A stretch of 64,000 nt of DNA, taken from NCBI RefSeq assembly GCF_003019035.1, contig NZ_CP027447.1. One strand, 5' to 3'. A program made the position numbers and the translations under genes. Positions 19,025 through 52,530 of this stretch are shown piece by piece (the stretch's first letter is position 1; every line of letters begins with the position of its first letter). Below the pieces are notes generated by a model that was given only the letters and a program-made list of their open reading frames with translations, searched no databases and was not told the origin of the DNA. The DNA is from Escherichia coli. GTDB taxonomy: Bacteria > Pseudomonadota > Gammaproteobacteria > Enterobacterales > Enterobacteriaceae.

Positions 19025-20397
19025 TGACCACGCGCCTGACTCGCTGGCTAACCACGCTGGATAACTTTGAAGCCAAAATGGCGCAGTTGCCTGCGGTACG
19101 TCGCTATGGGCGATTAACCCGCGCTACCGGGCTGGTGCTGGAAGCCACCGGATTACAATTGCCGCTCGGCGCAACCTGTGTCATTGAACGCCAGAACGGC
19201 AGCGAAACGCACGAAGTAGAAAGCGAAGTCGTTGGCTTTAACGGTCAACGGCTGTTTTTAATGCCGCTGGAGGAAGTGGAAGGTGTCCTGCCCGGCGCGC
19301 GTGTTTATGCCAAAAACATTTCGGCTGAAGGGCTGCAAAGCGGCAAGCAGTTGCCGCTCGGTCCGGCGTTATTAGGTCGCGTTCTGGACGGCAGCGGTAA
19401 ACCGCTCGATGGCCTCCCCTCCCCCGATACGACGGAAACCGGTGCGCTGATTACCCCGCCATTTAACCCATTGCAACGTACACCGATTGAACATGTGCTG
19501 GACACCGGCGTGCGCCCAATCAATGCCCTGCTTACCGTCGGGCGCGGGCAGCGCATGGGGCTGTTTGCCGGGTCCGGCGTTGGTAAAAGTGTGCTGCTGG
19601 GGATGATGGCCCGTTACACCCGCGCCGATGTCATTGTCGTGGGTTTGATTGGTGAACGAGGGCGCGAAGTAAAAGATTTTATTGAGAATATCCTCGGTGC
19701 CGAAGGACGTGCACGCTCCGTGGTGATTGCCGCTCCAGCGGACGTTTCTCCGCTCCTGCGAATGCAGGGTGCCGCCTATGCCACGCGCATTGCCGAAGAT
19801 TTTCGCGATCGTGGTCAGCATGTGTTGCTGATTATGGACTCCCTCACCCGCTACGCGATGGCCCAGCGTGAAATTGCGCTGGCGATTGGCGAACCCCCCG
19901 CCACCAAAGGTTATCCACCGTCGGTGTTTGCCAAATTACCGGCACTGGTCGAGCGTGCCGGAAATGGCATTAGCGGCGGAGGCTCGATTACCGCGTTTTA
20001 TACCGTGCTCACCGAGGGCGATGACCAGCAGGACCCCATTGCCGACTCCGCGCGGGCCATCCTCGACGGTCACATTGTGCTGTCTCGCCGACTGGCGGAA
20101 GCCGGGCACTATCCGGCTATCGATATTGAAGCGTCGATCAGCCGCGCAATGACGGCGTTGATCAGCGAGCAACATTATGCGCGAGTGCGCACCTTCAAAC
20201 AGCTGTTGTCGAGTTTTCAGCGTAACCGCGATCTGGTTAGCGTCGGTGCGTATGCCAAAGGCAGCGATCCAATGCTCGATAAAGCCATCGCCCTGTGGCC
20301 GCAGCTGGAGGGCTATTTGCAACAAGGCATTTTTGAACGCGCGGACTGGGAAGCGTCTCTCCAGGGGCTGGAGCGTATTTTCCCGACAGTGTCATAA
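19024..20397 (+). CDS. fliI: flagellum-specific ATPase FliI
   Basis: 457 aa; Walker A GSGVGKS. Confidence 0.95.
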
Positions 20398-20415
20398 CCC
20401 AGGAGATAACGGCAG

Positions 20416-20859
20416 ATGGCAGAACATGGTGCGCTGGCGACCCTGAAAGATCTGGCAGAAAAAGAGGTAGAGGATGCCGCGCGCCTGCTGGGTGAAATGC
20501 GTCGCGGATGTCAGCAGGCGGAAGAACAGCTCAAAATGCTGATCGATTATCAGAATGAATATCGCAATAACCTCAATAGCGATATGAGTGCCGGGATGAC
20601 CAGCAACCGCTGGATCAACTATCAGCAGTTTATCCAGACGCTGGAAAAAGCCATTACTCAGCATCGCCAGCAACTTAATCAGTGGACGCAGAAAGTTGAC
20701 ATTGCCCTGAACAGCTGGCGAGAAAAGAAACAACGTTTGCAGGCCTGGCAGACACTGCAGGAACGGCAATCCACGGCGGCACTGCTTGCAGAAAACCGCC
20801 TCGATCAGAAAAAGATGGATGAGTTCGCCCAGCGCGCCGCCATGAGGAAACCTGAATGA
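20416..20859 (+). CDS. fliJ: flagellar export protein FliJ
   Basis: 147 aa coiled-coil protein. Confidence 0.95.
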
Positions 20860-22556: not shown

Positions 22557-23561
22557 ATGGGCGATAGTATTCTTTCTCAAGCTGAAATTGATGCGCTGTT
22601 GAATGGTGACAGCGAAGTCAAAGACGAACCGACAGCCAGTGTTAGCGGCGAAAGTGACATTCGTCCGTACGATCCGAATACCCAACGACGGGTTGTGCGC
22701 GAACGTTTGCAGGCGCTGGAAATCATTAATGAGCGCTTTGCTCGCCATTTTCGTATGGGGCTGTTCAACCTGCTGCGCCGTAGCCCGGATATTACCGTCG
22801 GGGCCATCCGCATTCAGCCGTACCATGAATTTGCCCGCAACCTGCCGGTGCCGACCAACCTGAACCTTATCCATCTGAAACCGCTGCGCGGCACAGGGCT
22901 GGTGGTGTTCTCACCGAGTCTGGTGTTTATCGCCGTGGATAACCTGTTTGGCGGCGATGGACGCTTCCCGACCAAAGTGGAAGGTCGCGAGTTTACCCAT
23001 ACAGAACAGCGCGTCATCAACCGCATGTTAAAGCTGGCGCTTGAAGGCTATAGCGATGCCTGGAAGGCGATTAATCCGCTGGAAGTTGAGTACGTGCGTT
23101 CGGAAATGCAGGTGAAATTTACCAATATCACCACCTCGCCGAACGACATTGTGGTTAACACGCCGTTCCATGTGGAGATTGGCAACCTGACCGGCGAATT
23201 TAATATCTGCCTGCCATTCAGCATGATCGAGCCGCTACGGGAATTGTTGGTTAACCCGCCGCTGGAAAACTCGCGTAATGAAGATCAGAACTGGCGCGAT
23301 AACCTGGTGCGCCAGGTGCAGCATTCACAGCTCGAGCTGGTCGCCAACTTTGCCGATATATCGCTACGCCTGTCGCAGATTTTAAAACTGAAACCCGGTG
23401 ACGTCCTGCCGATAGAAAAACCCGATCGCATCATCGCCCATGTTGACGGCGTTCCGGTACTGACCAGTCAGTACGGCACCCTCAACGGTCAGTATGCGTT
23501 ACGGATAGAACATTTGATTAACCCGATTTTAAATTCTCTGAACGAGGAACAGCCCAAATGA
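22557..23561 (+). CDS. fliM: flagellar motor switch protein FliM
   Basis: ORF 22455..23561 trimmed to ATG at 22557 (MGDSILSQAEIDALL), 334 aa. Confidence 0.95.
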   Translation: MGDSILSQAEIDALLNGDSEVKDEPTASVSGESDIRPYDPNTQRRVVRERLQALEIINERFARHFRMGLFNLLRRSPDITVGAIRIQPYHEFARNLPVPTNLNLIHLKPLRGTGLVVFSPSLVFIAVDNLFGGDGRFPTKVEGREFTHTEQRVINRMLKLALEGYSDAWKAINPLEVEYVRSEMQVKFTNITTSPNDIVVNTPFHVEIGNLTGEFNICLPFSMIEPLRELLVNPPLENSRNEDQNWRDNLVRQVQHSQLELVANFADISLRLSQILKLKPGDVLPIEKPDRIIAHVDGVPVLTSQYGTLNGQYALRIEHLINPILNSLNEEQPK

Positions 23562-23971
23562 GTGACATGAATAATCCGGCCGATGACAACAACGGCGCAA
23601 TGGACGATCTGTGGGCTGAAGCGTTGAGCGAACAAAAATCAACCAGTGGCAAAAGCGCTGCCGACGCGGTGTTCCAGCAATTTGGCGGTGGTGATGTCAG
23701 CGGAACGTTGCAGGATATCGACCTGATTATGGATATTCCGGTCAAGCTGACCGTCGAGCTGGGCCGCACACGAATGACCATCAAAGAGTTATTGCGTCTG
23801 ACGCAAGGATCAGTCGTGGCGCTGGACGGTCTGGCGGGCGAACCGCTGGATATTCTGATCAACGGTTATTTAATTGCTCAGGGCGAAGTTGTCGTAGTCG
23901 CTGATAAATATGGCGTGCGGATCACCGATATCATTACTCCGTCTGAGCGGATGCGCCGCCTGAGCCGTTAG
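23558..23971 (+). CDS. fliN: flagellar motor switch protein FliN
   Basis: 137 aa. Confidence 0.95.
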   Translation: MSDMNNPADDNNGAMDDLWAEALSEQKSTSGKSAADAVFQQFGGGDVSGTLQDIDLIMDIPVKLTVELGRTRMTIKELLRLTQGSVVALDGLAGEPLDILINGYLIAQGEVVVVADKYGVRITDIITPSERMRRLSR

Positions 23972-23973
23972 TG

Positions 23974-24339
23974 ATGAATAACCACGCTACTGTGCAATCT
24001 CCCGCGCCGGTTTCTGCTGCGCCACTGCTGCAGGTGAGCGGCGCACTCATCGCCATTATTGCCCTGATCCTCGCTGCTGCCTGGCTGGTAAAACGGCTGG
24101 GATTTGCCCCGAAACGCACTGGCGTTAACGGTCTGAAAATTAGCGCCAGTGCTTCGCTGGGCGCGCGTGAACGGGTTGTGGTGGTCGATGTGGAAGATGC
24201 ACGGCTGGTGCTCGGCGTTACCGCAGGGCAAATCAATCTGCTGCATAAACTTCCCCCTTCAGCACCAACGGAAGAGATACCGCAGACCGATTTTCAGTCG
24301 GTCATGAAAAACTTGCTTAAGCGTAGCGGGAGATCCTGA
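23974..24339 (+). CDS. fliO: flagellar biosynthesis protein FliO
   Basis: ATG at 23974 (MNNHATVQ); ORF-track start 23971 is GTG. Confidence 0.9.
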
Positions 24340-27697: not shown

Positions 27698-27784
27698 AAA
27701 TCCCGACCCTGAGGGGGTCGGGATGAAACTTGCTTAAGCAAGAAGCACTTAAAAAATTCGTTACACCAGGAAATCTGATGTGTT
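27698..27784 (-). ncRNA. dsrA: DsrA small regulatory RNA
   Basis: minus-strand 87 nt AACACATCAGATTTCCTGGTGTAACG...CCCGACCCCCTCAGGGTCGGGATTT matches DsrA as I recall it, ending in its terminator hairpin. Confidence 0.92.
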
Positions 27785-35955: not shown

Positions 35956-36185
35956 ATTGGATGAGCCAGTCAAGACTCAATCATTTTTTGAACAAATAGA
36001 TAATTTTTGCGCAACGGCAATAATTACCGGAAAAACAGCAATAAAGATTTATTATTATCTATGGTAATGGTTTTATTAATTCACCTAAACAATATATTAG
36101 CACCGAATTCAATTATACCTTTTTTGATTTCTGTGTCATGATAACCCCGTTATTAGCCTTTTATCGTCTTGTTTATATTTTTTGG

Positions 36186-36209
36186 GCCGGCATGATGCCG
36201 GCTTTTTTT
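36186..36209 (+). terminator. orphan intrinsic terminator-like hairpin
   Basis: gccggcatgatgccggc followed by seven T on the plus strand; no annotated plus-strand gene upstream. Confidence 0.4.
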
Positions 36210-43767: not shown

Positions 43768-44418
43768 TTGGCGATTCGTCTTCATAAACTGGCTGTTGCT
43801 TTAGGTGTCTTTATTGTTAGCGCTCCTGCCTTTTCGCATGGTCATCACTCACACGGCAAACCCTTAACAGAGGTCGAACAAAAAGCTGCTAATGGTGTTT
43901 TTGATGATGCCAATGTACAAAACCGAACACTAAGTGACTGGGATGGAGTCTGGCAATCCGTTTATCCTTTACTGCAAAGTGGCAAACTTGACCCCGTCTT
44001 TCAGAAGAAAGCGGATGCAGATAAAACCAAAACATTTGCTGAAATTAAAGATTATTATCACAAAGGTTATGCGACAGATATCGAGATGATTGGCATTGAG
44101 GACGGCATTGTTGAATTTCATAGAAATAATGAAACAACATCCTGTAAATATGATTACGATGGATACAAAATACTCACCTATAAATCAGGTAAGAAAGGCG
44201 TTCGTTACTTATTCGAATGTAAAGATCCTAAAAGCAAAGCCCCTAAATATATTCAATTTAGCGATCATATAATTGCACCACGAAAATCATCTCATTTTCA
44301 CATTTTTATGGGTAATGATTCACAGCAATCTTTATTAAATGAAATGGAAAACTGGCCAACGTATTATCCCTATCAGTTGAGTAGCGAAGAAGTGGTCGAG
44401 GAAATGATGTCTCATTGA
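43768..44418 (+). CDS. zinT: periplasmic zinc/cadmium-binding protein
   Basis: 216 aa; TTG start with SD ggagga; His-rich N terminus HGHHSHGK. Confidence 0.93.
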
Positions 44419-44506
44419 TTTTTTTGCGCTGACTTCAATTATTTAACAGAACAGTGCCTGGTAGTAACGACAATAATTTACCAAGACAAATAAATAAGAC
44501 AAACTC

Positions 44507-44538
44507 AGACACGCTCATGCTTGAGACGTGTCTTTTTT
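44507..44538 (+). terminator. intrinsic terminator downstream of zinT
   Basis: stem agacacg / cgtgtct followed by a T-run. Confidence 0.6.
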
Positions 44539-45087
44539 ATTATGTCTGTAGAATAAAACTGAGAAAACGGCGAACAATAAATACACAACTCACCAATACA
44601 GACTGGCTGCGCCAATGTCTCCAGGAGCAAGTCATCTGTCATGGTAAAGCTAACCAGAAATATAGGTTAATTTTGGTATTTAAACCTTTTTTACTTGTTA
44701 GTATGATACAAAGGCTTTCAAAAAAGCTGGGAAATTCAACAACTCTTGGAAATTATGGACTTTGTCCCGCGGCTTTAATCTGACGGCCGCGTTCCTTTTT
44801 TTGCTCAATTATTGACCCCTTCTCTACGCAACTTCAGTTCCCACCACCAACTTTGCGGCAGCTTTGTAGGATCAATGTCTAAAAGAATAATGGTGACCGA
44901 TAAGAAAACGACTGAATAATTGCAGATTTTCGCTCGAAACCTTCCTGTCAGATCCATAGCGAATCAAGTGCTGAATGTCACAGTATCGAACAGAAAACAG
45001 TGACGATCTAACCCTTCAAGAATATTCTACGATTGTTCTGTTTAGGAAAAGCAAGGCGGGAAGTCGGGAGATAAGTCATTGATAAAG

Positions 45088-45149
45088 TGGCGGAGAGAGG
45101 GGGATTTGAACCCCCGGTAGAGTTGCCCCTACTCCGGTTTTCGAGACCG
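45088..45149 (-). other. 3-prime 62 nt of tRNA-Ser(CGA) (serU-type): prophage att junction
   Basis: minus strand reads CGGTCTCGAAAACCGGAGTAGGGGCAACTCTACCGGGGGTTCAAATCCCCCTCTCTCCGCCA (anticodon loop to CCA end); tRNA 5-prime half absent, match stops at 45150. Confidence 0.8.
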
Positions 45150-45494
45150 ATGATACAGAGTCGAAAAATCAAAGAGTTAAAAATTTTTCTTGGAATAAAT
45201 GTCTTAAAATCGTACACGAAAAATCAATGAATTACATAAATTAAAGAAGAATATTCCAAGCCTTCTTAAGTCCACCACCTGTTTTCAGGTGTCATTCAGA
45301 CGTGATTTGCCCCATATTGGGAAAGCACGCTTTTTTCTCAGCTTATTCCGTTTTGCCTGTGTGTTGAATAATTCCACTGCAGTTATATAAAATCGGTAAC
45401 GGCTGGAAATCATTCAATACTCGCACTATCGGAAGTTCACCAGCCAACCGCAGCACGTTCTTGCATACGACGTGCTGCGGCATAATCCCAATGA

Positions 45495-46079
45495 TTACTC
45501 CCTGACAGGGTTCGTAGGCCACTCAATATCAGGTGCAGTTGATGTATCAACACGGTTCAGCAACACCCGATACTTCTTCCAGGCTTCCAGCAACGAGTTT
45601 TCTTCCTCCGTTGCAATTTCCAGATCTACAGCATCCTGAAGCGGCGCAATATGCTCACTGGCTACCTGCATCAGGCTTTTTTTTGTTTCTTCCGCCTCCC
45701 GGATCCGGAACAGTTTTTCTGCTTCCGTATCCTTCACCCAGGCTGTGCCGTTCCACTTCTGATATTCCCCTCCCGGCGATAACCAGGTAACATTTTCCGG
45801 TAACGGACCGAGTTCAGAAATAAATAACGCGTCGCCGGAAGCCACGTCATAGACGGTTTTACCCCGATGGTCTTCAACGAGATGCCACGATGCCTCATCA
45901 CTGTTGAAAACAGCCACAAAGCCAGCCGGAATATCTGGCGGTGCAATATCGGTACTGTTTGCAGGCAGACCGGTATGAGGCGGAATGTATGCATCACCTT
46001 CACCAATAAATTCACTGGTTCCGGCCAGCAGATTATAAATTTTTATGGTCCGTGGTTGTTCACTCATTCTGAATGCCAT
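45495..46079 (-). CDS. tfa: tail fiber assembly protein (lambda Tfa-like)
   Basis: 194 aa, matches lambda Tfa as I recall it. Confidence 0.9.
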
Positions 46080-48403
46080 TATGCAAGCCTCACAATATAG
46101 TTAAATGCGATGTTTTTGACGGTGTTTTCCGCGTTACCAGCAGCGTTAACGGTGATGGTGTGTCCGTGTGAACCAATACTGAAAGAATGGGCATGAGCAC
46201 CGATAACAACCGGATGCTGGTGCGCACCAATACCAACTGTATGCGCATGTGCACCGGCACTCACAGCTGTACCGGACAATGAGTGACTGTGGTTGCCCTG
46301 ACTGTCCGTTTTCGATAAATAAGCAATACCCTGTGTGTTGGTTCCTTTAACTGTGGATAAACTTCCTGTAATGGTTGCTGTTCCATACTGACTCCAGCCA
46401 GAACTGTTCATCCTTAAACCACTTGTGTGGGCATGAGCACCCGCGGCCCCTGTTGAACCGCTCAGACTGTGAGCATGAGCCCCCGTGTTATTCGTCGATT
46501 TGGTGCCGTAATCGAAACTGCCTGTTGTTTTCGTCCCGTAATCAAACGACGATGTGGTTTTCGTCCCCAAATCCGTACCGGATGCACTGGCACTGTGGGT
46601 GTGCGACTTAATTCCATCCTGTTCCTGAGACAATACAGCACGACCGCTGGCGGGTTTCCCCTTGATTGTCCAGCCTCGCATATCAGGAAGCACACCCGAT
46701 GGATACGCGACAGCAAGTTTTGGGTAGGCTGATTTGTCAAACGCCTGCCCCTGCATCAGGACGTAGCCAGACGGAACGATATCTGATGGCCACGGGATCG
46801 GCGCACCTGCCGGAAAGGCCGAATTCTCTCCGGCTCCAAGGTATTCAAGAACATCTGCAACAGAATTTTTTGCCAGAATATCCCTGCCAACCTGAGTCAG
46901 TTCAGTCAGGCTGGCGGCATCATTTTCCGCAAAATACGGTAATTTATTTTTCGCCGTGGAAAGCCCTGCCAGCGCCGTCAGTGTCGCATTCTTCGGTTGT
47001 TTACCCGCAAGCGCGTTAGTCATGGTGGTAGCAAAATCTGGATCATTCCCGAGCGCTGCGGCCAGTTCATTCAGCGTATTCAGTGCGTCAGGTGACGCGT
47101 CGATAACATCTGCAATCGCGGCCAGTACAAAAGCGGTGTTCGCAATCTGGGTATTGTTTGTTCCCCTGAGCGCGGTTGGTGCTGTTGGCGTTCCGGTCAG
47201 TGCCGGACTATCCAGTGGGGCTTTTCTGTTCGTTTCATCCATTACCACCTTAACCGCCTTTGGCGTTGCAGCAAGCGTTTCAGACGTGCTGTTGGTTGCA
47301 CTGCTGAGCTGCACTATCCCCTTTCTCGTTGTGTCCGCATCCTCAAGCGCGACAGCTGAAGCTATATCTTCTGCACGTTTTGCCGAGTTTTCTGCACGTA
47401 TTGCCGCCGCTTCTGCCGCACTTTTGCTCTGCGATGCTGATACCGCACTTCCCGCAGCCTCTGTCGCCTTCGTGGATGCCGTTGACGCACTCCCCGCCGC
47501 CGCTGTTTTTGCGTCTGCCGCGGCAGAGGCGCTCCGTTCCGCTGCTGTTTCAGATGACCTGGCATTCGTCTCGGACGTTTTTGCCGCCCTGGCAGAATTT
47601 TCTGCCGCCGTTGCCGAGGAAGCTGCACGACCGGCACTTGATGATGCGTTCGTTTCTGATGATTTTGCTGCCTCTTTTGAGGCCACCGCATCTCGTGCTG
47701 AAGTGGCGGCCTCTGACGCTTTAGTGGTCGCGGTGGAGGCAGACGTGGCGGCTGATTGTTGTGACGCTGCAGCATTCGTTTCTGACGTTTTCGCCGCACC
47801 GGCACTGGTGGCCGCCGCGCTTTTTGAGGACTCTGCAGCGGCAGCACTTTTTTCCGCTTCAGTGGCCTTTGTTGATGCCGTTCCTGCGCTGGAAGACGCT
47901 GACTGAGCCGACGAAGCGGCCTGTCCGGCTGACGTGCTGGCTGCGCGTGCTGAGCCTGCAGCATCAGTCGCATGGGTTGCCGCCTCACGGGCTGATGTGC
48001 TGGCATCGCCGGCTGACTTCTTCGCGGCTGCCGTGTTCTGTGCCACCACGGACGCGTTACGCGCCACCTCTTCCACCATCAGTTCAAAACGGCGCAGTGC
48101 CTCAGGACGGGCATCATCCTCCGTCATGGCACCGAGAAAATCATTCAGCGTACCGGGTCGGGAATCTTCATACACGGTGATGGTCCCGGCATGTGACGGC
48201 GGGAATCCTTCCACCAACAGAATAACGCTGTACTGACCGTACTCAACGTCCATGCTGTAACGCCCGGCTTCATCCGGATTTTCTGAGGCCAGCGTGTTCA
48301 CCACCACCGTGGTACTGTTACGTTTTGCTTTCAGCTGGATTGTGCAGTTCTGTACCGGTTTTCCTGTGCCGTCTTTCAGTACACCTGAAATCTTTACTGC
48401 CAT
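46079..48403 (-). CDS. stf: side tail fiber protein (lambda Stf-like, full length)
   Basis: N terminus [20 protein letters not shown]; Ala/Ser-rich repeats; C-terminal GAHAH repeats; ATG at 48403 (ORF-track start 48409 is GTG). Confidence 0.9.
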
Positions 48404-48414
48404 ATTCACCCCAC

Positions 48415-48440
48415 AAAAAAGCCCGCCTGAACCGGCGGGC
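48415..48440 (-). terminator. intrinsic terminator after lom
   Basis: gcccgcc/ggcgggc hairpin followed by a T-run on the minus strand. Confidence 0.6.
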
Positions 48441-48467
48441 TGTCATAACACTGTGTTACCTGGCTAA

Positions 48468-49067
48468 TCAGAATTTATAACCGACACCCACGATGAAACC
48501 GTCAGTGCGCCAGTCGCCACTGCCGGAACCTTCATAAGCGACATCAACGGCCACGGATTCGGTCGGGTTAAACTGCACGCCAGCCCCCCACGCCAGAGAC
48601 GTGTTGCTGTGGCGACCGTCATCACTTCCGATCAGCACATCGTGCGTTTTCCCCGTATTGTCGGTCACCTGCAGATAATCCCCGGAGAAAGTCGACACAC
48701 GGCTGTAAGCCACACCCGCCATCGCATACGCGCTGAACCATTCATTCACGCGCACAGACGGCCCCGCCATCACGCTGAACCAGCGGTTACGCACGGAATC
48801 TTCATGCCAGCGGGTATCGCTGTAATGCGTTTTTTGCTCATCTTCAGCGTTGGCATAACTGAATGACGTAATCAGCCCCAGCGTGTCCGTAAACTCATAA
48901 CGGTATTTCACGTTAATCCCGTTCAGATTATCGCTGCCGGGAGCGTTCGTACGGGCATGAAGATACCCTGCGCTCAGTGTGGCCTGCTGCTCAGACGCCC
49001 ATGCAGGCGCACCGGATACGGCCAGACAGATGGCTGCGGACAAAATGGCTGCACAAACTTTACGCAT
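48468..49067 (-). CDS. lom: Lom-family outer membrane beta-barrel protein (Ail/OmpX-like)
   Basis: 199 aa with signal peptide and C-terminal GVGYKF. Confidence 0.9.
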
Positions 49068-49134: not shown

Positions 49135-52100
49135 TCAGCTGATACTGATGCCTGCGGTGGCTTTCTTCATCACCACAACCAGCAAATCGCTGATACTTGC
49201 TGTGGGATACCAGTCATTTACCAGCCATGCTGACACCGAAAACTCCAGCGTCATGTGGCCGTGACCAGCTGGCATATCAATAACACCACTGTAAATCAGC
49301 GTATTATCCAGCGCGGTACGGTTATAAATTTCAGCACCATTTTTCTTCACTATCAGGCGGCATGACGAATAAATATCGTTATTCTCCCGCTCATGTTTAG
49401 CGCCGCAGAATGCCACCGCCGGAATAACAATTTGCCTGTCAAAAGGCTGATCGTCATAAATCCTGACGGTAATGGTCCCTGATGGCCACCGCTCCGGTGC
49501 CCGGGAGTCCCGCGGGAAAGCCTTACCCACTGTTTTGACAATATCGCCTTCAATCTGGTTGGCTGACAGTTTCCCTTTAATCTGACAGTTCTCATTTATC
49601 GTAACGTTGTTGAGCGTCCCGGAGTTCGCATTCACACTGCCACTGATATCCGCATTTTTAGCGGTCAGCTTTCCGTCTGATGTCAGGGAAAATACCGGAG
49701 GACTGCCTCCGCTGGTAATGGTGGGTGCCGTCAGGCGTTTCAGGAACACGTCGTTCATGAATATCTGGTTGCCCTGCGCCACAAACATCGGCGTTTCATT
49801 CCCGTTTGCCGGGTCAATAAACGCGATACGGTTAGCGGCAACCAGAAACTGGCTCAGTTTGCCTTCCTCCGTGTCCTCCATGCTGAGGCCAATACCCGCG
49901 ACATAATGTTTGCCGTCTTTGGTCTGCTCAATTTTGACAGCCCACATGGCATTCCACTTATCGTTGGCGTCCTTCCACTCTTTCGAAAACTCCTCCAGTC
50001 TGCTGGCGTTATCCTCCGTCAGCTCGACTTTTTCCAGCAGCTCCTTGCCGAGATGGGATTCGGTTATCTTGCCTTTGAAAAAATCCAGGTAACCTTCCGC
50101 ATCATCGCTCGCCCGACCGACGGCCTCCACGAATGCCGATTTGCCAACGGTGTTCACACTGCGGATATAAAAGTAATAATCATGGCCCGGTTTGATATTG
50201 ATACTGGCGGCTATCCAGTACAGCCCCGTGCCAAGATAGCGGGCTGTGGTTTCAACCTGCCTGATATCAGTAATCCGCGTTTCCGAGAACCAGAACTCAA
50301 ACTGTACCGTCGGATCGTAAACCGCAAGATGCGGCGTGGCGGTTATCTGAAAATAGCCCGGCGTCAGCTCAATCCGCGACGGCGCTGCCGGTGCGGCAAT
50401 CCGGAACGATACCGACGCCGGATCGCCCTGCTGTCCCCACGCATTTACCGCCCGGACTGTCAGCCTGTAGTTCCCTGGCGCCAGTTGCGTGAAGCGGTAT
50501 GTGGTTTCCGTCGTCCGGGCCGTGCTGACCAGCCGCTCACTGCCGTCATCCGCTGCCACGGTCAGGCGAAGCAGGAAGCTCACGCCCTTCACCACTTTCG
50601 GCGTGTCCCAGCGGGCCAGCACCTGATATTCTCCGCTGTCTGCGGTGACTTCGGCAGTCAGGTGCTGCACCGCTGGCGGCGTGACACCATTCACCGTGCC
50701 GCTCTGGTCGCCGTCAAAGTGCGCCCCGTTATCCACGATGGCCTCTTTTTCCGGCACATGCTGCACGGCGGTGATGGCATACGTGCCGTCATCGTTCTCA
50801 CGGATACTCACGCAGCGGAACAGTCGCTGGCGCAGCGTCGGCAGCTTCAGCCCCCATACGCTGTATTCAGCAACACCGTCAGGAACACGGCTCACTTTTA
50901 CCTTCACGCCGTCGGTGACGGACTGAACCTCCACGCTGACCGGATTGCCACTTCCGTCAACCAGGCTTATCAGCGCGGTACCGGAGGATGGCAGCGTGAT
51001 TTCACGGTCGAGCGTCAGCGTCCGGGTCTGGCTGTTCACCGCCAGCACGCGACCACCGGTACTGATACCGGCATAGTCATCATCGCAGACTTCAATGACG
51101 TCACCCGGTACATGGCGAAGCCCTTCTGCACCCACGCTGAAGTCCACCGTCTGCGTCTCCAGCAGTTCCGTTTTAATCAGCCACAGCCCGGCGCGGTGCG
51201 CCTGCCCCCGGCTGGTACAGCCAAAGGCATCCATCTTCGTGACGTTACGACCGTAACGGGCAATAGCCTGCGTATCTTCAACCAGCTCCGTCGCCGTCTC
51301 CCAGCCGTTGTTCGGGTCAATCCAGTTCACCTCAACGGCATTATGGCGGTCCTTCAGGGCGCTGAAGCTGTAGCGGAACGGCGCGCCATCATCCGGCATC
51401 ACCACATTACTGCGGTTATAGGTCCACACCTTATCTGATGGTCGGTCCTGCACGAACGTCAGCGTCTGCCCGTTCCATACCGGCATACAGCGCATCGCCG
51501 AGCAGAAATCACTGAGCACATCCCACGCCTTGCGCTGCGTGGTCAGGTACGCATTACAGGTGATGCGCGGCTCCGTGCCGCCAAAGCCGTCCGGCACTGA
51601 CTGGTCGCAGTACTGGCCGATGACATACAGCGCCCATTTATCCACATCCGCCGCACCAAGACGTTTCCCCATGCCGTAGCGCGGATGGGTCAGCATATCC
51701 CACAGACACCAGGCCATGTTGTTGCTGTATGCCGGTTTAAACGTTCCGTCCCAGATACCGCTGTATTGCCGCGTCTGCGGGTTATAGTTCGACGGCACCT
51801 GCAGAATGCGCCCGCGAAGATGATAATTACGACTCACCTGCTGGCTGCCGAACTGCTCCGAGTCCACCTGTACACCGACCAGTGCCGTGTTCGGGTAGCC
51901 CTGTTTCACATCGATGATTTCGGTGTATGACGACCAGAGCGTTTTGTTCTGCAGCTGGTCTGTAGTGCTGTCCGGCGTCATCCTGCGCATCCGGATACTG
52001 AACGGGCGCGGCGGCAGGTTACCCACCACCACCGAGGCCAGATACTGCGAGGTGGTTTTACCCTTAATGGTGATGTCTTTTTCTGTCACCCAGGCACCGT

Positions 52101-52530
52101 TACGCTGTATCTGAACCAGCAGGCGGACTTCCGACGGATTCCGGTCACCCTTTGAGGTGGTTTCCACCAGAGCCTGCACACCGAAGGTAAAGCGCAGTCG
52201 GTCGATGTTTGCCGACGTGATGGTCCGGGTGATCGGCGTGTCATATTTCACTTCCGTACCCAGCACCGTCTCGGAGCCGGAGGATTCAAACCCCTCCGGC
52301 GGTGTCTGCTCCTGCTCACCTGCCCGGAACACCACCGTGACACCGGAGATGTTGGTATTCCCCTCAGTGTCCAGCACCGGCGTACTGTTCAGCAGCACGC
52401 TTTTTAATCCATCCACCGGACCTTCAATCGGTCCTTCACTGATGGCATCAATCACACTCAGCAACTGCGTGGACTTCAGGTTGTCCTTCGCTTCGCGCGG
52501 GGTATGCCCCTTACTGCTGCCTTTACCCAT
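49135..52530 (-). CDS. J: tail tip / host specificity protein J
   Basis: 1131 aa; N terminus [24 protein letters not shown] matches lambda J; C-terminal ~150 aa diverge. Confidence 0.93.

Follow-up and report, generated by a model that had tools for sequence, protein, structure and literature searches.

The locus considered here, which lies within a window of 64,000 nucleotides from Escherichia coli (contig NZ_CP027447.1), raises the question of whether its side tail fibre gene, stf, is complete, what kind of fibre it would build, and whether the two long open reading frames that overlap it are genes in their own right. It is very probable that an intact stf of the Ur-lambda form, accompanied by tfa, is carried by a lambdoid prophage, is built as a gp37-tipped coiled-coil fibre and has a recombinant history, and that the overlapping frames are not genes. 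The gene itself is a complete lambda-type Stf in an E. coli prophage, which is ordinary and already well known; the stf gene, its splitting in laboratory lambda, the gp37-like tip and the coiled-coil shaft have all been published.

The gene stf occupies 46079..48403 on the minus strand as one unbroken frame of 774 codons, which starts with the ATG at 48403 and contains zero internal stops. The mechanical open reading frame begins at the GTG at 48409, 6 nt 5' of this ATG, and encodes 776 aa, while the ATG at 48403 is the annotated start in lambda and corresponds to residue 1 of the cryo-EM chain 9e7m. The assignment as a side tail fibre is carried by an alignment to lambda stf that spans the full gene at 96.4% nucleotide identity, four Pfam domains (PF08400, PF03406, PF07484 and PF03335) and matches to PHROG tail-fibre families (best E=4.6e-187). 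An identical Stf protein is already held by NCBI (EFI3812085.1 and others) and is carried on 17 contigs.

Intactness was examined in a three-way alignment of the window, laboratory lambda PaPa (NC_001416, 96.3% DNA identity) and the intact-stf lambda record KT232076, in which stf shows a sole gap column, a C at stf nt 1184. CCCC is read at stf nt 1181-1184 (47217..47220, minus strand, GGGG on the plus strand) in both the window and KT232076, whereas PaPa has CCC, and the annotations of NC_001416 and KT232076 show that the missing C splits stf into orf-401 and orf-314. The frameshift site of PaPa is codon 395, in the hinge of Stf, and the frame of the window runs open across it, which is the Ur-lambda state. 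A reading made from the sequence alone had described an intact, Ur-lambda-like Stf of 774 aa, and the alignment with lambda stf that it proposed bears this out, since the internal frameshift or stop that was sought is not present. Compared with the Ur-lambda Stf (KT232076, ALA45720.1, 774 aa), the window protein is alike in length, domain order, the base at the frameshift site, the downstream tfa and its place after J and lom; the two proteins agree at 746 of 774 positions, with a single difference (S704N) in the C-terminal 548 residues, and 27 of the 28 amino-acid differences fall within aa 27-226. The Ur-lambda Stf was reportedly described by Hendrix and Duda in 1992.

The surroundings of the gene, all on the minus strand, follow the order J-lom-stf-tfa, the same as in lambda. 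J (49135..52530) lies 5' of lom (48468..49067), and between lom and stf stands a terminator-like hairpin with a T-run (48420..48441), which is followed by GGGGTGA and then by the ATG. Downstream, the tail fibre assembly chaperone gene tfa (45495..46079, 194 aa; Pfam PF02413, E=2.4e-44) is identical to lambda orf-194 at 186 of 194 residues, and its start overlaps the stop of stf in a TAATG junction. Unlike Ur-lambda, the prophage is HK97-like in its head and tape measure and has another J tip and another lom. A tRNA scan across the entire window found none.

The N-terminal part of Stf, aa 1-91 (48131..48403, minus strand), is the StfN collar domain of fibre-to-tail attachment, which matches the Stf chain 1-94 of PDB 9e7m/9mgh (E=8.5e-52) and the whole PF08400 profile (E=5.5e-72, positions 1-134 of 134). 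In the published structure, gpStfN 1-91 constitutes a dodecameric collar at the gpV/gpM junction, and the anatomy of the Ur-lambda Stf, established from cryo-EM/ET and AF3, places a coiled-coil domain at 102-393 and a hinge at 394-422 (PMC12617516).

Between the attachment domain and the hinge of the window protein, 33 uninterrupted heptads of the form A-x-x-A-x-x-S extend over aa 117-347 (47363..48055, minus strand), a stretch composed of 38% Ala, 21% Ser and 11% Thr; within aa 117-345 there are no Tyr and only five V/L/I/M/F residues. The periodicity of Ala peaks at exactly 3.50 residues with a power of 7.24, a value reached by none of 300 shuffles, whose 95th percentile is 1.87, and a further peak stands at 7.0, while the self-identity at lags of 7, 14 and so on up to 56 amounts to 0.38-0.41 against 0.21 expected. 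Ala occupies heptad position 3 in 32 of 33 heptads and position 0 in 23 of 33, Ser occupies position 6 in 25 of 32, and zero register shifts were found. An AF2 monomer model likewise gives helix at aa 98-207 and 213-378 (mean pLDDT 78.5), so that a long helical shaft in one register is present, for which the trimeric state is a prediction. The helix of this model turns back at aa 208-212, which is probably an artefact of the monomer, in agreement with a comment in the literature that AF3 models of the full-length protein fold back, contrary to cryo-ET evidence (PMC12617516); the model does not, however, speak for a straight trimer. The array corresponds to the proximal shaft, a trimeric coiled coil, of the published anatomy. 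At its end, a Phage_fiber_2 repeat (aa 358-396; 47216..47332, minus strand; Pfam PF03406, E=2e-19), which resembles the phage tail fibre S structures 5yvq/8ju3, covers the end of the proximal shaft and the start of the hinge.

An Ala/Ser/Thr-rich low-complexity block had been placed at 47416..48031 by the sequence-only reading; the block exists and has that composition, but it is slightly larger, and its sequence is an orderly succession of heptads, not a diffuse low-complexity tract. The tandem-repeat analysis suggested in the same place detected only two short arrays in the DNA, with a 21-nt period at 47368..47416 and a 27-nt period at 46187..46255; the 33-heptad array escaped this search and is visible only as a protein periodicity.

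The distal tip, aa 518-774 (46082..46852, minus strand), is gp37-like and comprises a collar domain, an HxH needle and a presumed receptor-binding head. It aligns end to end with residues 17-242 of the chain of T4 gp37 2XGF (E=2.4e-73), the collar and the C-terminal strand included, and Pfam Collar PF07484 is found at aa 533-580 (E=8.3e-11). Eight HxH motifs, starting at aa 601, 643, 657, 705, 719, 728, 737 and 746, lie within aa 601-748 (46160..46603, minus strand), and the exact 9-aa spacing of the last four is the 27-nt tandem repeat seen in the DNA. All 16 His residues of aa 521-774 fall within these motifs, while 20,000 shuffles gave 0.95 motifs on average and never more than 5. The C-terminal His-containing repeats had earlier been noticed at 46123..46456 and worded as GAHAH; they are real, although their start in the gene lies about 150 nt further 5', and the literal GAHAH applies to only four of the eight motifs. 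The structure of the T4 gp37 distal tip (2XGF) is reportedly due to Bartual and colleagues in 2010.

Seven of the eight Stf motifs align with all seven HxH motifs of T4 gp37, which shares with Stf the collar region and a conserved 15-residue C-terminal sequence as well. In the Stf tip the returning strand is 9 aa longer, by the eighth HxH, the outgoing strand gains 10 aa through a further GTKTTxSFDY unit, and the head stretch is 11 residues longer and largely dissimilar; outside the tip Stf is unrelated to gp37. In T4 gp37 the HxH motifs bind seven iron ions (PMC11705849), and metal binding by Stf is predicted accordingly from the aligned motifs. The stretch between the third and fourth HxH, aa 660-704 (46292..46426, minus strand), which is the same as in lambda save for S704N, is the presumed receptor-binding head by analogy with the head domain of gp37 and with the published model of Ur-lambda Stf and OmpC; OmpC is the named receptor of the Ur-lambda Stf (PMC12617516). 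From that report and the near-identity of the tip to lambda, with S704N as the only difference, we infer that the window fibre may bind OmpC and speed adsorption.

Taken together, these parts suggest a fibre in which three Stf chains, by homology, would come together, the residues 1-91 would dock on the tail at the junction of tube and tip, and the 33 heptads would wind into a trimeric coiled coil, a slender shaft with an Ala core and a length of about 34 nm. The shaft would be followed by a hinge, and the C-terminal 257 residues would fold into a T4-gp37-like tip. Within this tip a column of metal ions is predicted to be coordinated by the eight HxH motifs, and the small head domain is expected to make contact with OmpC. 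The trimer, the metal ions, the receptor and the role in adsorption are all drawn from homology and remain predictions.

The gene is a recombinant. As a search for near-identical (at least 97.5%) long DNA matches among 80 IMG/VR loci found none, identity profiles in 150-nt bins were used, which place an approximate junction within the heptad array at 47800..47950 (minus strand). On its 5' side, stf is 96-100% identical to the L013/L025-type stf of IMG/VR and 84-93% to lambda, whereas on its 3' side the identity to lambda rises to 97-100% and that to L013 drops from 92% to 77%; for the locus L083 the comparison gave 99.7% identity. By these profiles the 5' part of about 500 nt comes from another Stf lineage, and the rest, with most of tfa, is of lambda type. 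This 5' part matches the prophage's own tail module. The DNA adjoining stf upstream is of the same lineage, and the attachment domain is identical (100% of the protein) to alleles in many other prophages. Longer PF08400 Stf proteins of prophages (among them IMG/VR L013, L015 and L027; 964-1258 aa) have the same type of heptad array and an N-terminus that matches over 110 aa at identities of up to 100%; they differ from the window Stf in the length of the array, the distal parts and the tips.

Two long frames overlap stf, and the coordinates given for them by the sequence-only reading, 46956..47906 on the plus strand and 47362..48006 on the minus strand, are exact. The former is antisense to stf and encodes 316 aa, and its first 400 nt or so (46956..47362) lie beyond the heptad block, opposite stf aa 348-483; the latter lies in the +1 frame and encodes 214 aa rich in Arg, Gln and Pro. 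Antisense stops are possible only opposite Tyr, His or Gln codons and a +1 stop requires a codon with T in second position, and codons of both kinds are nearly absent from the heptad array. The stops that bound the antisense frame lie at GCT-CAG and ACT-CAG sense codons, that is, at Gln after a codon ending in T. Among synonymous-codon shuffles of stf, antisense frames measured 269±101 aa and reached the observed length in 34% of trials, and +1 frames measured 219±49 aa and did so in 68%. Across 75 distinct homologues, the stop-free runs in the two alternative frames follow the length of the block (rho 0.81 and 0.92).

Since the third positions of stf and of the antisense frame coincide, GC3 and codon-position composition are blind here, and constraint was assessed by conditional counts of synonymous and non-synonymous changes in 320 natural variants, counted as unique variants rather than independent tree events. 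The stf frame is strongly constrained (omega about 0.25, p from 1e-7 to 1e-22). Of 210 variants that are silent in stf, 180 leave the antisense protein unchanged as well, where 172.9 would be expected (p=0.24), and in the orf206b part the count is 139 against 138.2; the antisense omega is 0.78 (95% CI 0.51-1.15), a value of 0.4 or less being rejected and values of 0.5-1 being compatible at the low power that coinciding third positions leave. Variants synonymous in the +1 frame number 42 against 43.0 expected, and all of the 173 variants (out of 280) that are silent in stf alter the sequence of the +1 frame, which has zero matches in Pfam and PHROG. Both overlapping frames are by-products of the Ala-rich repeat and not genes, as the sequence-only reading had considered very likely: the shuffles match their lengths and neither is significantly constrained.

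It might nevertheless be proposed that the plus-strand frame represents a genuine gene nested antisense to stf, with a product rich in Ala, Ser, Val and Phe. Its counterpart in lambda, orf206b (47286..47906 in the window), is an annotated CDS of the lambda reference genome (NP_040603.1), with 206 aa against 316 aa, the frame and the stop codon being common and the greater length here being due to an in-frame GTG available upstream; the plus-strand frame matches PHROG family 560 (E=2.8e-62), and many homologues keep the frame open. The family could stem merely from repeated annotation of one shadow frame, however, and the open length among homologues ranges from 79 to 386 codons in step with the repeat. 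No Shine-Dalgarno sequence was found before GTG 46956 or GTG 47286, nor a promoter-like site near the starts, Pfam gave zero matches, and the exact sequence is absent as a called protein among about 15 billion proteins. Lambda orf206b was scored non-essential by CRISPRi, and a search of the literature on it for functional evidence found none. With a length expected from the Stf protein itself and no excess of antisense-synonymous change, such a gene is extremely improbable, and it is just as hard to credit that an orf206b-type frame nested in the coiled-coil region is translated at a low level with a function.

A different objection would make stf an intact-looking relic without function, either in a prophage remnant or as a fibre unable to mount on a non-lambda tail. 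Side fibres are dispensable for plaque formation (PMC12617516), the end of the window falls inside the prophage, and its head, tape measure, J tip and lom are not those of lambda. Against this stand the purifying selection on the stf frame, the intact tfa with its translational coupling to stf, a complete tail module M-L-K-I-J and the occurrence of the identical protein on 17 contigs, while the attachment domain shared with other prophages and the upstream DNA of the same lineage fit co-adaptation to the tail type. A relic is very unlikely, and the intact stf with its tfa would fit the HK97-like tail with its non-lambda J tip.

The scientific stake of the gene is small, for its parts have been described before and NCBI already has the identical protein. 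For annotation, the frames at 46956..47906 (plus) and 47362..48006 (minus) should not be called genes, and lambda orf206b and PHROG 560 look like a shadow-frame annotation that has been passed along. The crossover in the heptad array illustrates cleanly how tail attachment and receptor-binding modules can be exchanged at a repetitive shaft. As for host range, the prophage is predicted to produce side fibres that target OmpC and end in what is essentially the tip of lambda, in addition to a non-lambda tip of the central fibre.

The stf gene, which encodes the side tail fibre, lies on the minus strand at 46079..48403, within a single ORF (46079..48409) that yields 774 aa without internal stops when read from the ATG at 48403. 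The mechanical ORF list starts the gene at a GTG 6 nt upstream, but the ATG is the better start, because it is preceded by GGGGTGA, is the annotated lambda start and matches the residue at which the Stf chain begins (residue 1) in 9e7m, the cryo-EM model of Ur-lambda. The lambda gene order J (49135..52530), lom (48468..49067), stf and tfa (the tail fibre assembly chaperone gene, 45495..46079) is found on the minus strand, with the start of tfa overlapping the stop of stf (TAATG). In the lom/stf gap, 17 nt ahead of the stf ATG, a GC-rich hairpin of 8 bp runs into TTTTTT (48420..48441, minus strand), forming a terminator-like site within the late operon. Wholly within the tfa coding sequence and on its strand, 45538..45736 (minus strand) matches RF02111 'IS009', an Rfam family for a candidate sRNA, at 223 bits, and this RNA family therefore coincides with the tail-fibre-assembly gene.

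The window stf shares 96.3-96.4% identity at 100% coverage with lambda and lambda hybrids (megablast). It was aligned with laboratory lambda PaPa (NC_001416), whose stf is broken into orf-401 and orf-314, and with the lambda record KT232076, where a single 774-aa tail fibre is annotated. The sole gap column of this three-way alignment is stf nt 1184, where PaPa has AAAAGCCCACTGG against AAAAGCCCCACTGG in both the window and KT232076, and the gene is therefore in the Ur-lambda state. The sequence-only reading had described Stf as an intact 774-aa protein of the Ur-lambda form rather than the split one, which was borne out by the stop-free frame and by AAAAGCCCCACTGG at the PaPa site; the alignment with lambda stf that it proposed as a check covered the full gene with one gap column and disclosed no frameshift or stop in the window copy. 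An identical protein is already present in NCBI (e.g. EFI3812085.1; 17 contigs), and among 5,426 complete genomes of E. coli there are 77 that carry at least 80% of the window stf, including K-12 lambda lysogens such as J53, NCM3722 and CV601, the best match being strain RM8082 (99.7%). Several NCBI records of the identical protein are named 'short-chain dehydrogenase', and a 30-aa cluster member in public databases is named 'homoserine acetyltransferase, partial', which are evident misannotations of a tail fibre protein.

Structurally, Stf begins with the N-terminal tail fibre domain PF08400 (aa 1-134, E=5.5e-72), which overlaps the match to the Ur-lambda StfN structure 9e7m (aa 1-94, E=8.5e-52), followed by a Phage_fiber_2 repeat (PF03406, aa 358-396, E=2e-19), a Collar domain (PF07484, aa 533-580, E=8.3e-11) and a region matching the T4 gp37 tip 2XGF (aa 518-774, E=2.4e-73). 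In the published model of Ur-lambda, whose virion bears four trimeric Stf fibres, residues 1-91 form a collar domain and 102-393 the proximal coiled coil, with 92-101 as the linker between them; after the hinge (394-422) come a distal portion and a gp37-like tip for receptor binding, placed in the OmpC trimer in that model (PMC12617516). The PaPa frameshift falls at codon 395, at the start of the hinge.

The Ala/Ser/Thr-rich block is a perfect heptad array, in which aa 117-347 (47363..48055) form 33 consecutive heptads in a single register without skips. Within aa 117-345, Ala, Ser and Thr account for 38%, 21% and 11%, while Tyr is absent and V/L/I/M/F residues number just five. The Fourier spectrum of the Ala indicator peaks at exactly 3.50 residues and again at 7.0; the power of the former, 7.24 where the 95th percentile of shuffles is 1.87, was reached by none of 300 shuffles, and self-identity at lags 7 to 56 is 0.38-0.41 versus 0.21 expected. 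Ala occupies heptad position 3 in 32 of 33 repeats and position 0 in 23 of 33, and Ser fills position 6 in 25 of 32. For aa 96-400, AF2 run on the single sequence (mean pLDDT 78.5) predicts helix throughout, at 98-207 and 213-378 with one fold-back, which is taken to be a monomer artefact. As a coiled coil rises by about 0.148 nm per residue, the 231 residues would span roughly 34 nm. The sequence-only reading had placed this block at 47416..48031, a range that lies inside the array and falls about 75 nt short in total. The tandem-repeat analysis it suggested detected a 27-nt repeat at 46187..46255, while the heptad array, mostly invisible in DNA, is seen as protein periodicity: Tandem Repeats Finder, for which the array is too diverged at the DNA level, recovers no more than 2.3 copies of a 21-nt unit there.

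The tip carries eight His-x-His (HxH) motifs at aa 601, 643, 657, 705, 719, 728, 737 and 746 (46160..46603), which account for every one of the 16 His residues in the last 254 aa; 20,000 shuffles gave a mean of 0.95 and a maximum of 5 motifs. The last four are spaced by exactly 9 aa, corresponding to the 27-nt repeat. The His repeats had been assigned to 46123..46456 as GAHAH, and they are indeed present, although that range omits the first two motifs and only four of the eight read literally GAHAH. When Stf is aligned with T4 gp37, the seven HxH motifs of gp37 coincide with seven of the eight in Stf, which is further extended, relative to gp37, by one HxH unit of 9 aa on the returning strand, by one GTKTTxSFDY unit of 10 aa on the outgoing strand and by 11 residues in the head stretch between HxH 3 and HxH 4. 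The motifs of crystalline gp37 hold seven iron ions, according to PMC11705849, where that structure is cited. By analogy, the Stf needle is probably one repeat longer than that of T4 with eight metal sites, and the same would apply to lambda itself.

Two long ORFs overlapping stf, 46956..47906 (plus strand, 316 aa) and 47362..48006 (minus strand, 214 aa), had been pointed out and judged very unlikely to be genes; both occur at exactly these coordinates in the ORF list. Third codon positions of the antisense frame lie opposite those of stf, and a stop can occur there only opposite a Tyr codon preceded by a codon with a final T or C, or opposite a His or Gln codon preceded by one with a final T. 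GCT-CAG at aa 166-167 and ACT-CAG at aa 503-504 delimit the open stretch exactly, and each Gln or Tyr codon between them comes after a codon whose last base is "wrong" for a stop. The other ORF lies in the stf +1 frame, where a stop needs a second-position T (a V/L/I/M/F codon); such codons are nearly absent from the heptad array, and the limits of the run are Leu108 and Ile347. Among 2,000 synonymous-codon shuffles that preserved both the encoded protein and the codon usage of stf, the antisense run measured 269+-101 aa and the +1 run 219+-49 aa, and 34% and 68% of shuffles, respectively, were at least as long as observed. Across 75 distinct IMG/VR Stf homologues, the antisense run varies from 79 to 386 codons, and run length follows that of the Ala/Ser/Thr block (Spearman 0.81 for antisense, 0.92 for +1). 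Elsewhere, a 510-aa ORF (49906..51438, plus strand) lies in the frame directly opposite J, where stops need sense TTA, CTA or TCA; its 585-codon stop-free run was reached by only 1.4% of synonymous shuffles of J (317+-93 codons), uncorrected for five frames.

That the antisense ORF might nevertheless be a gene is suggested by annotation, since it shares frame and stop with the lambda CDS orf206b (NP_040603.1, complement 20147..20767; equivalent to 47286..47906 here) and matches PHROG family 560, of "unknown function" (E=2.8e-62). Natural variation argues otherwise. Among 320 unique variants in the antisense-ORF region, from in-frame alignments at 80% identity or more, 210 are silent in stf, of which 180 are also antisense-silent against 172.9 expected (p=0.24); for the orf206b part the figures are 139 and 138.2. 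The antisense omega is 0.78 (95% CI 0.51-1.15), and values of 0.4 or below are rejected (p=0.0012), while the stf-frame omega, conditioned on antisense class, is about 0.25 (p=5e-7 and 5e-9). The +1 frame shows 42 synonymous variants versus 43.0 expected, and its sequence is altered by all 173 of 173 stf-silent variants. Neither ORF has a Pfam match, the exact sequences of both are absent among about 15 billion predicted proteins, and neither a Shine-Dalgarno sequence nor a promoter-like site was found near candidate antisense starts. A CRISPRi screen scored orf206b as non-essential, and the literature searched lists it without functional evidence. Most simply, the orf206b annotation and PHROG 560 are shadow-ORF artefacts, although a weak constraint may exist. 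The overlapping ORFs are by-products, mechanistically and statistically, and the earlier judgement held on shuffles, homologue run lengths and natural variants alike.

The gene is also a mosaic. Against KT232076 it differs at 83 nt, 72 of them within the first 600 nt, and Stf differs at 28 aa, 27 of them within aa 27-226; the sole C-terminal change, S704N, adjoins HxH 4, where T4 likewise has Asn. In 150-nt bins, the sequence from 48550 to about 47800 is 84-93% identical to lambda and 96-100% to two IMG/VR loci with longer Stf homologues (L013 and L025), whereas from about 47800 to about 45550, covering the rest of stf and most of tfa, lambda identity is 97-100% and that to the two loci declines from 92% to 77%. 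This puts the crossover within the heptad array, around stf nt 450-600. Exchange of tail fibre modules is reportedly well known from Haggard-Ljungquist et al. in 1992 and Sandmeier in 1994. Upstream, most of lom (48596..49067) and the last ~440 nt of J (49135..49574), which encode the C-terminal receptor-binding domain PF12421, lack lambda-like DNA within flanks that are about 95% lambda-like; this implies a different central-fibre specificity as well as a different Lom allele (199 aa). Since the head and tape measure are moreover HK97-like, the phage is distinct from lambda: a lambdoid prophage adjoining zinT, in which its own attachment half of stf is joined to the lambda receptor-binding half and to tfa.

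Directly after tfa, 45384..45481 matches lambda 24161-24259 at 91%, and the lambda ea47 region (~22608-24161) is therefore missing here. The zinT gene (43768..44418) lies about 1 kb from tfa, no yodB ORF intervening in 43768..45494; RM8082, the closest complete genome, harbors the same kind of prophage after zinT-yodB. ARAGORN found no tRNA genes in the window. The sRNA genes dsrA (27698..27784, minus strand) and rseX (36120..36209, plus strand) upstream of the prophage assign the window to the dsrA-rseX-zinT region in a chromosome of E. coli type.

The original finding on stf is thus correct and its object already known, and nothing in its refinement would surprise a phage specialist. What has been added comprises the boundaries of block and motifs, the heptad register, the eight HxH motifs, the mechanistic and statistical evidence showing the overlapping ORFs to be by-products, the connection with orf206b and PHROG 560, and the recombination junction.
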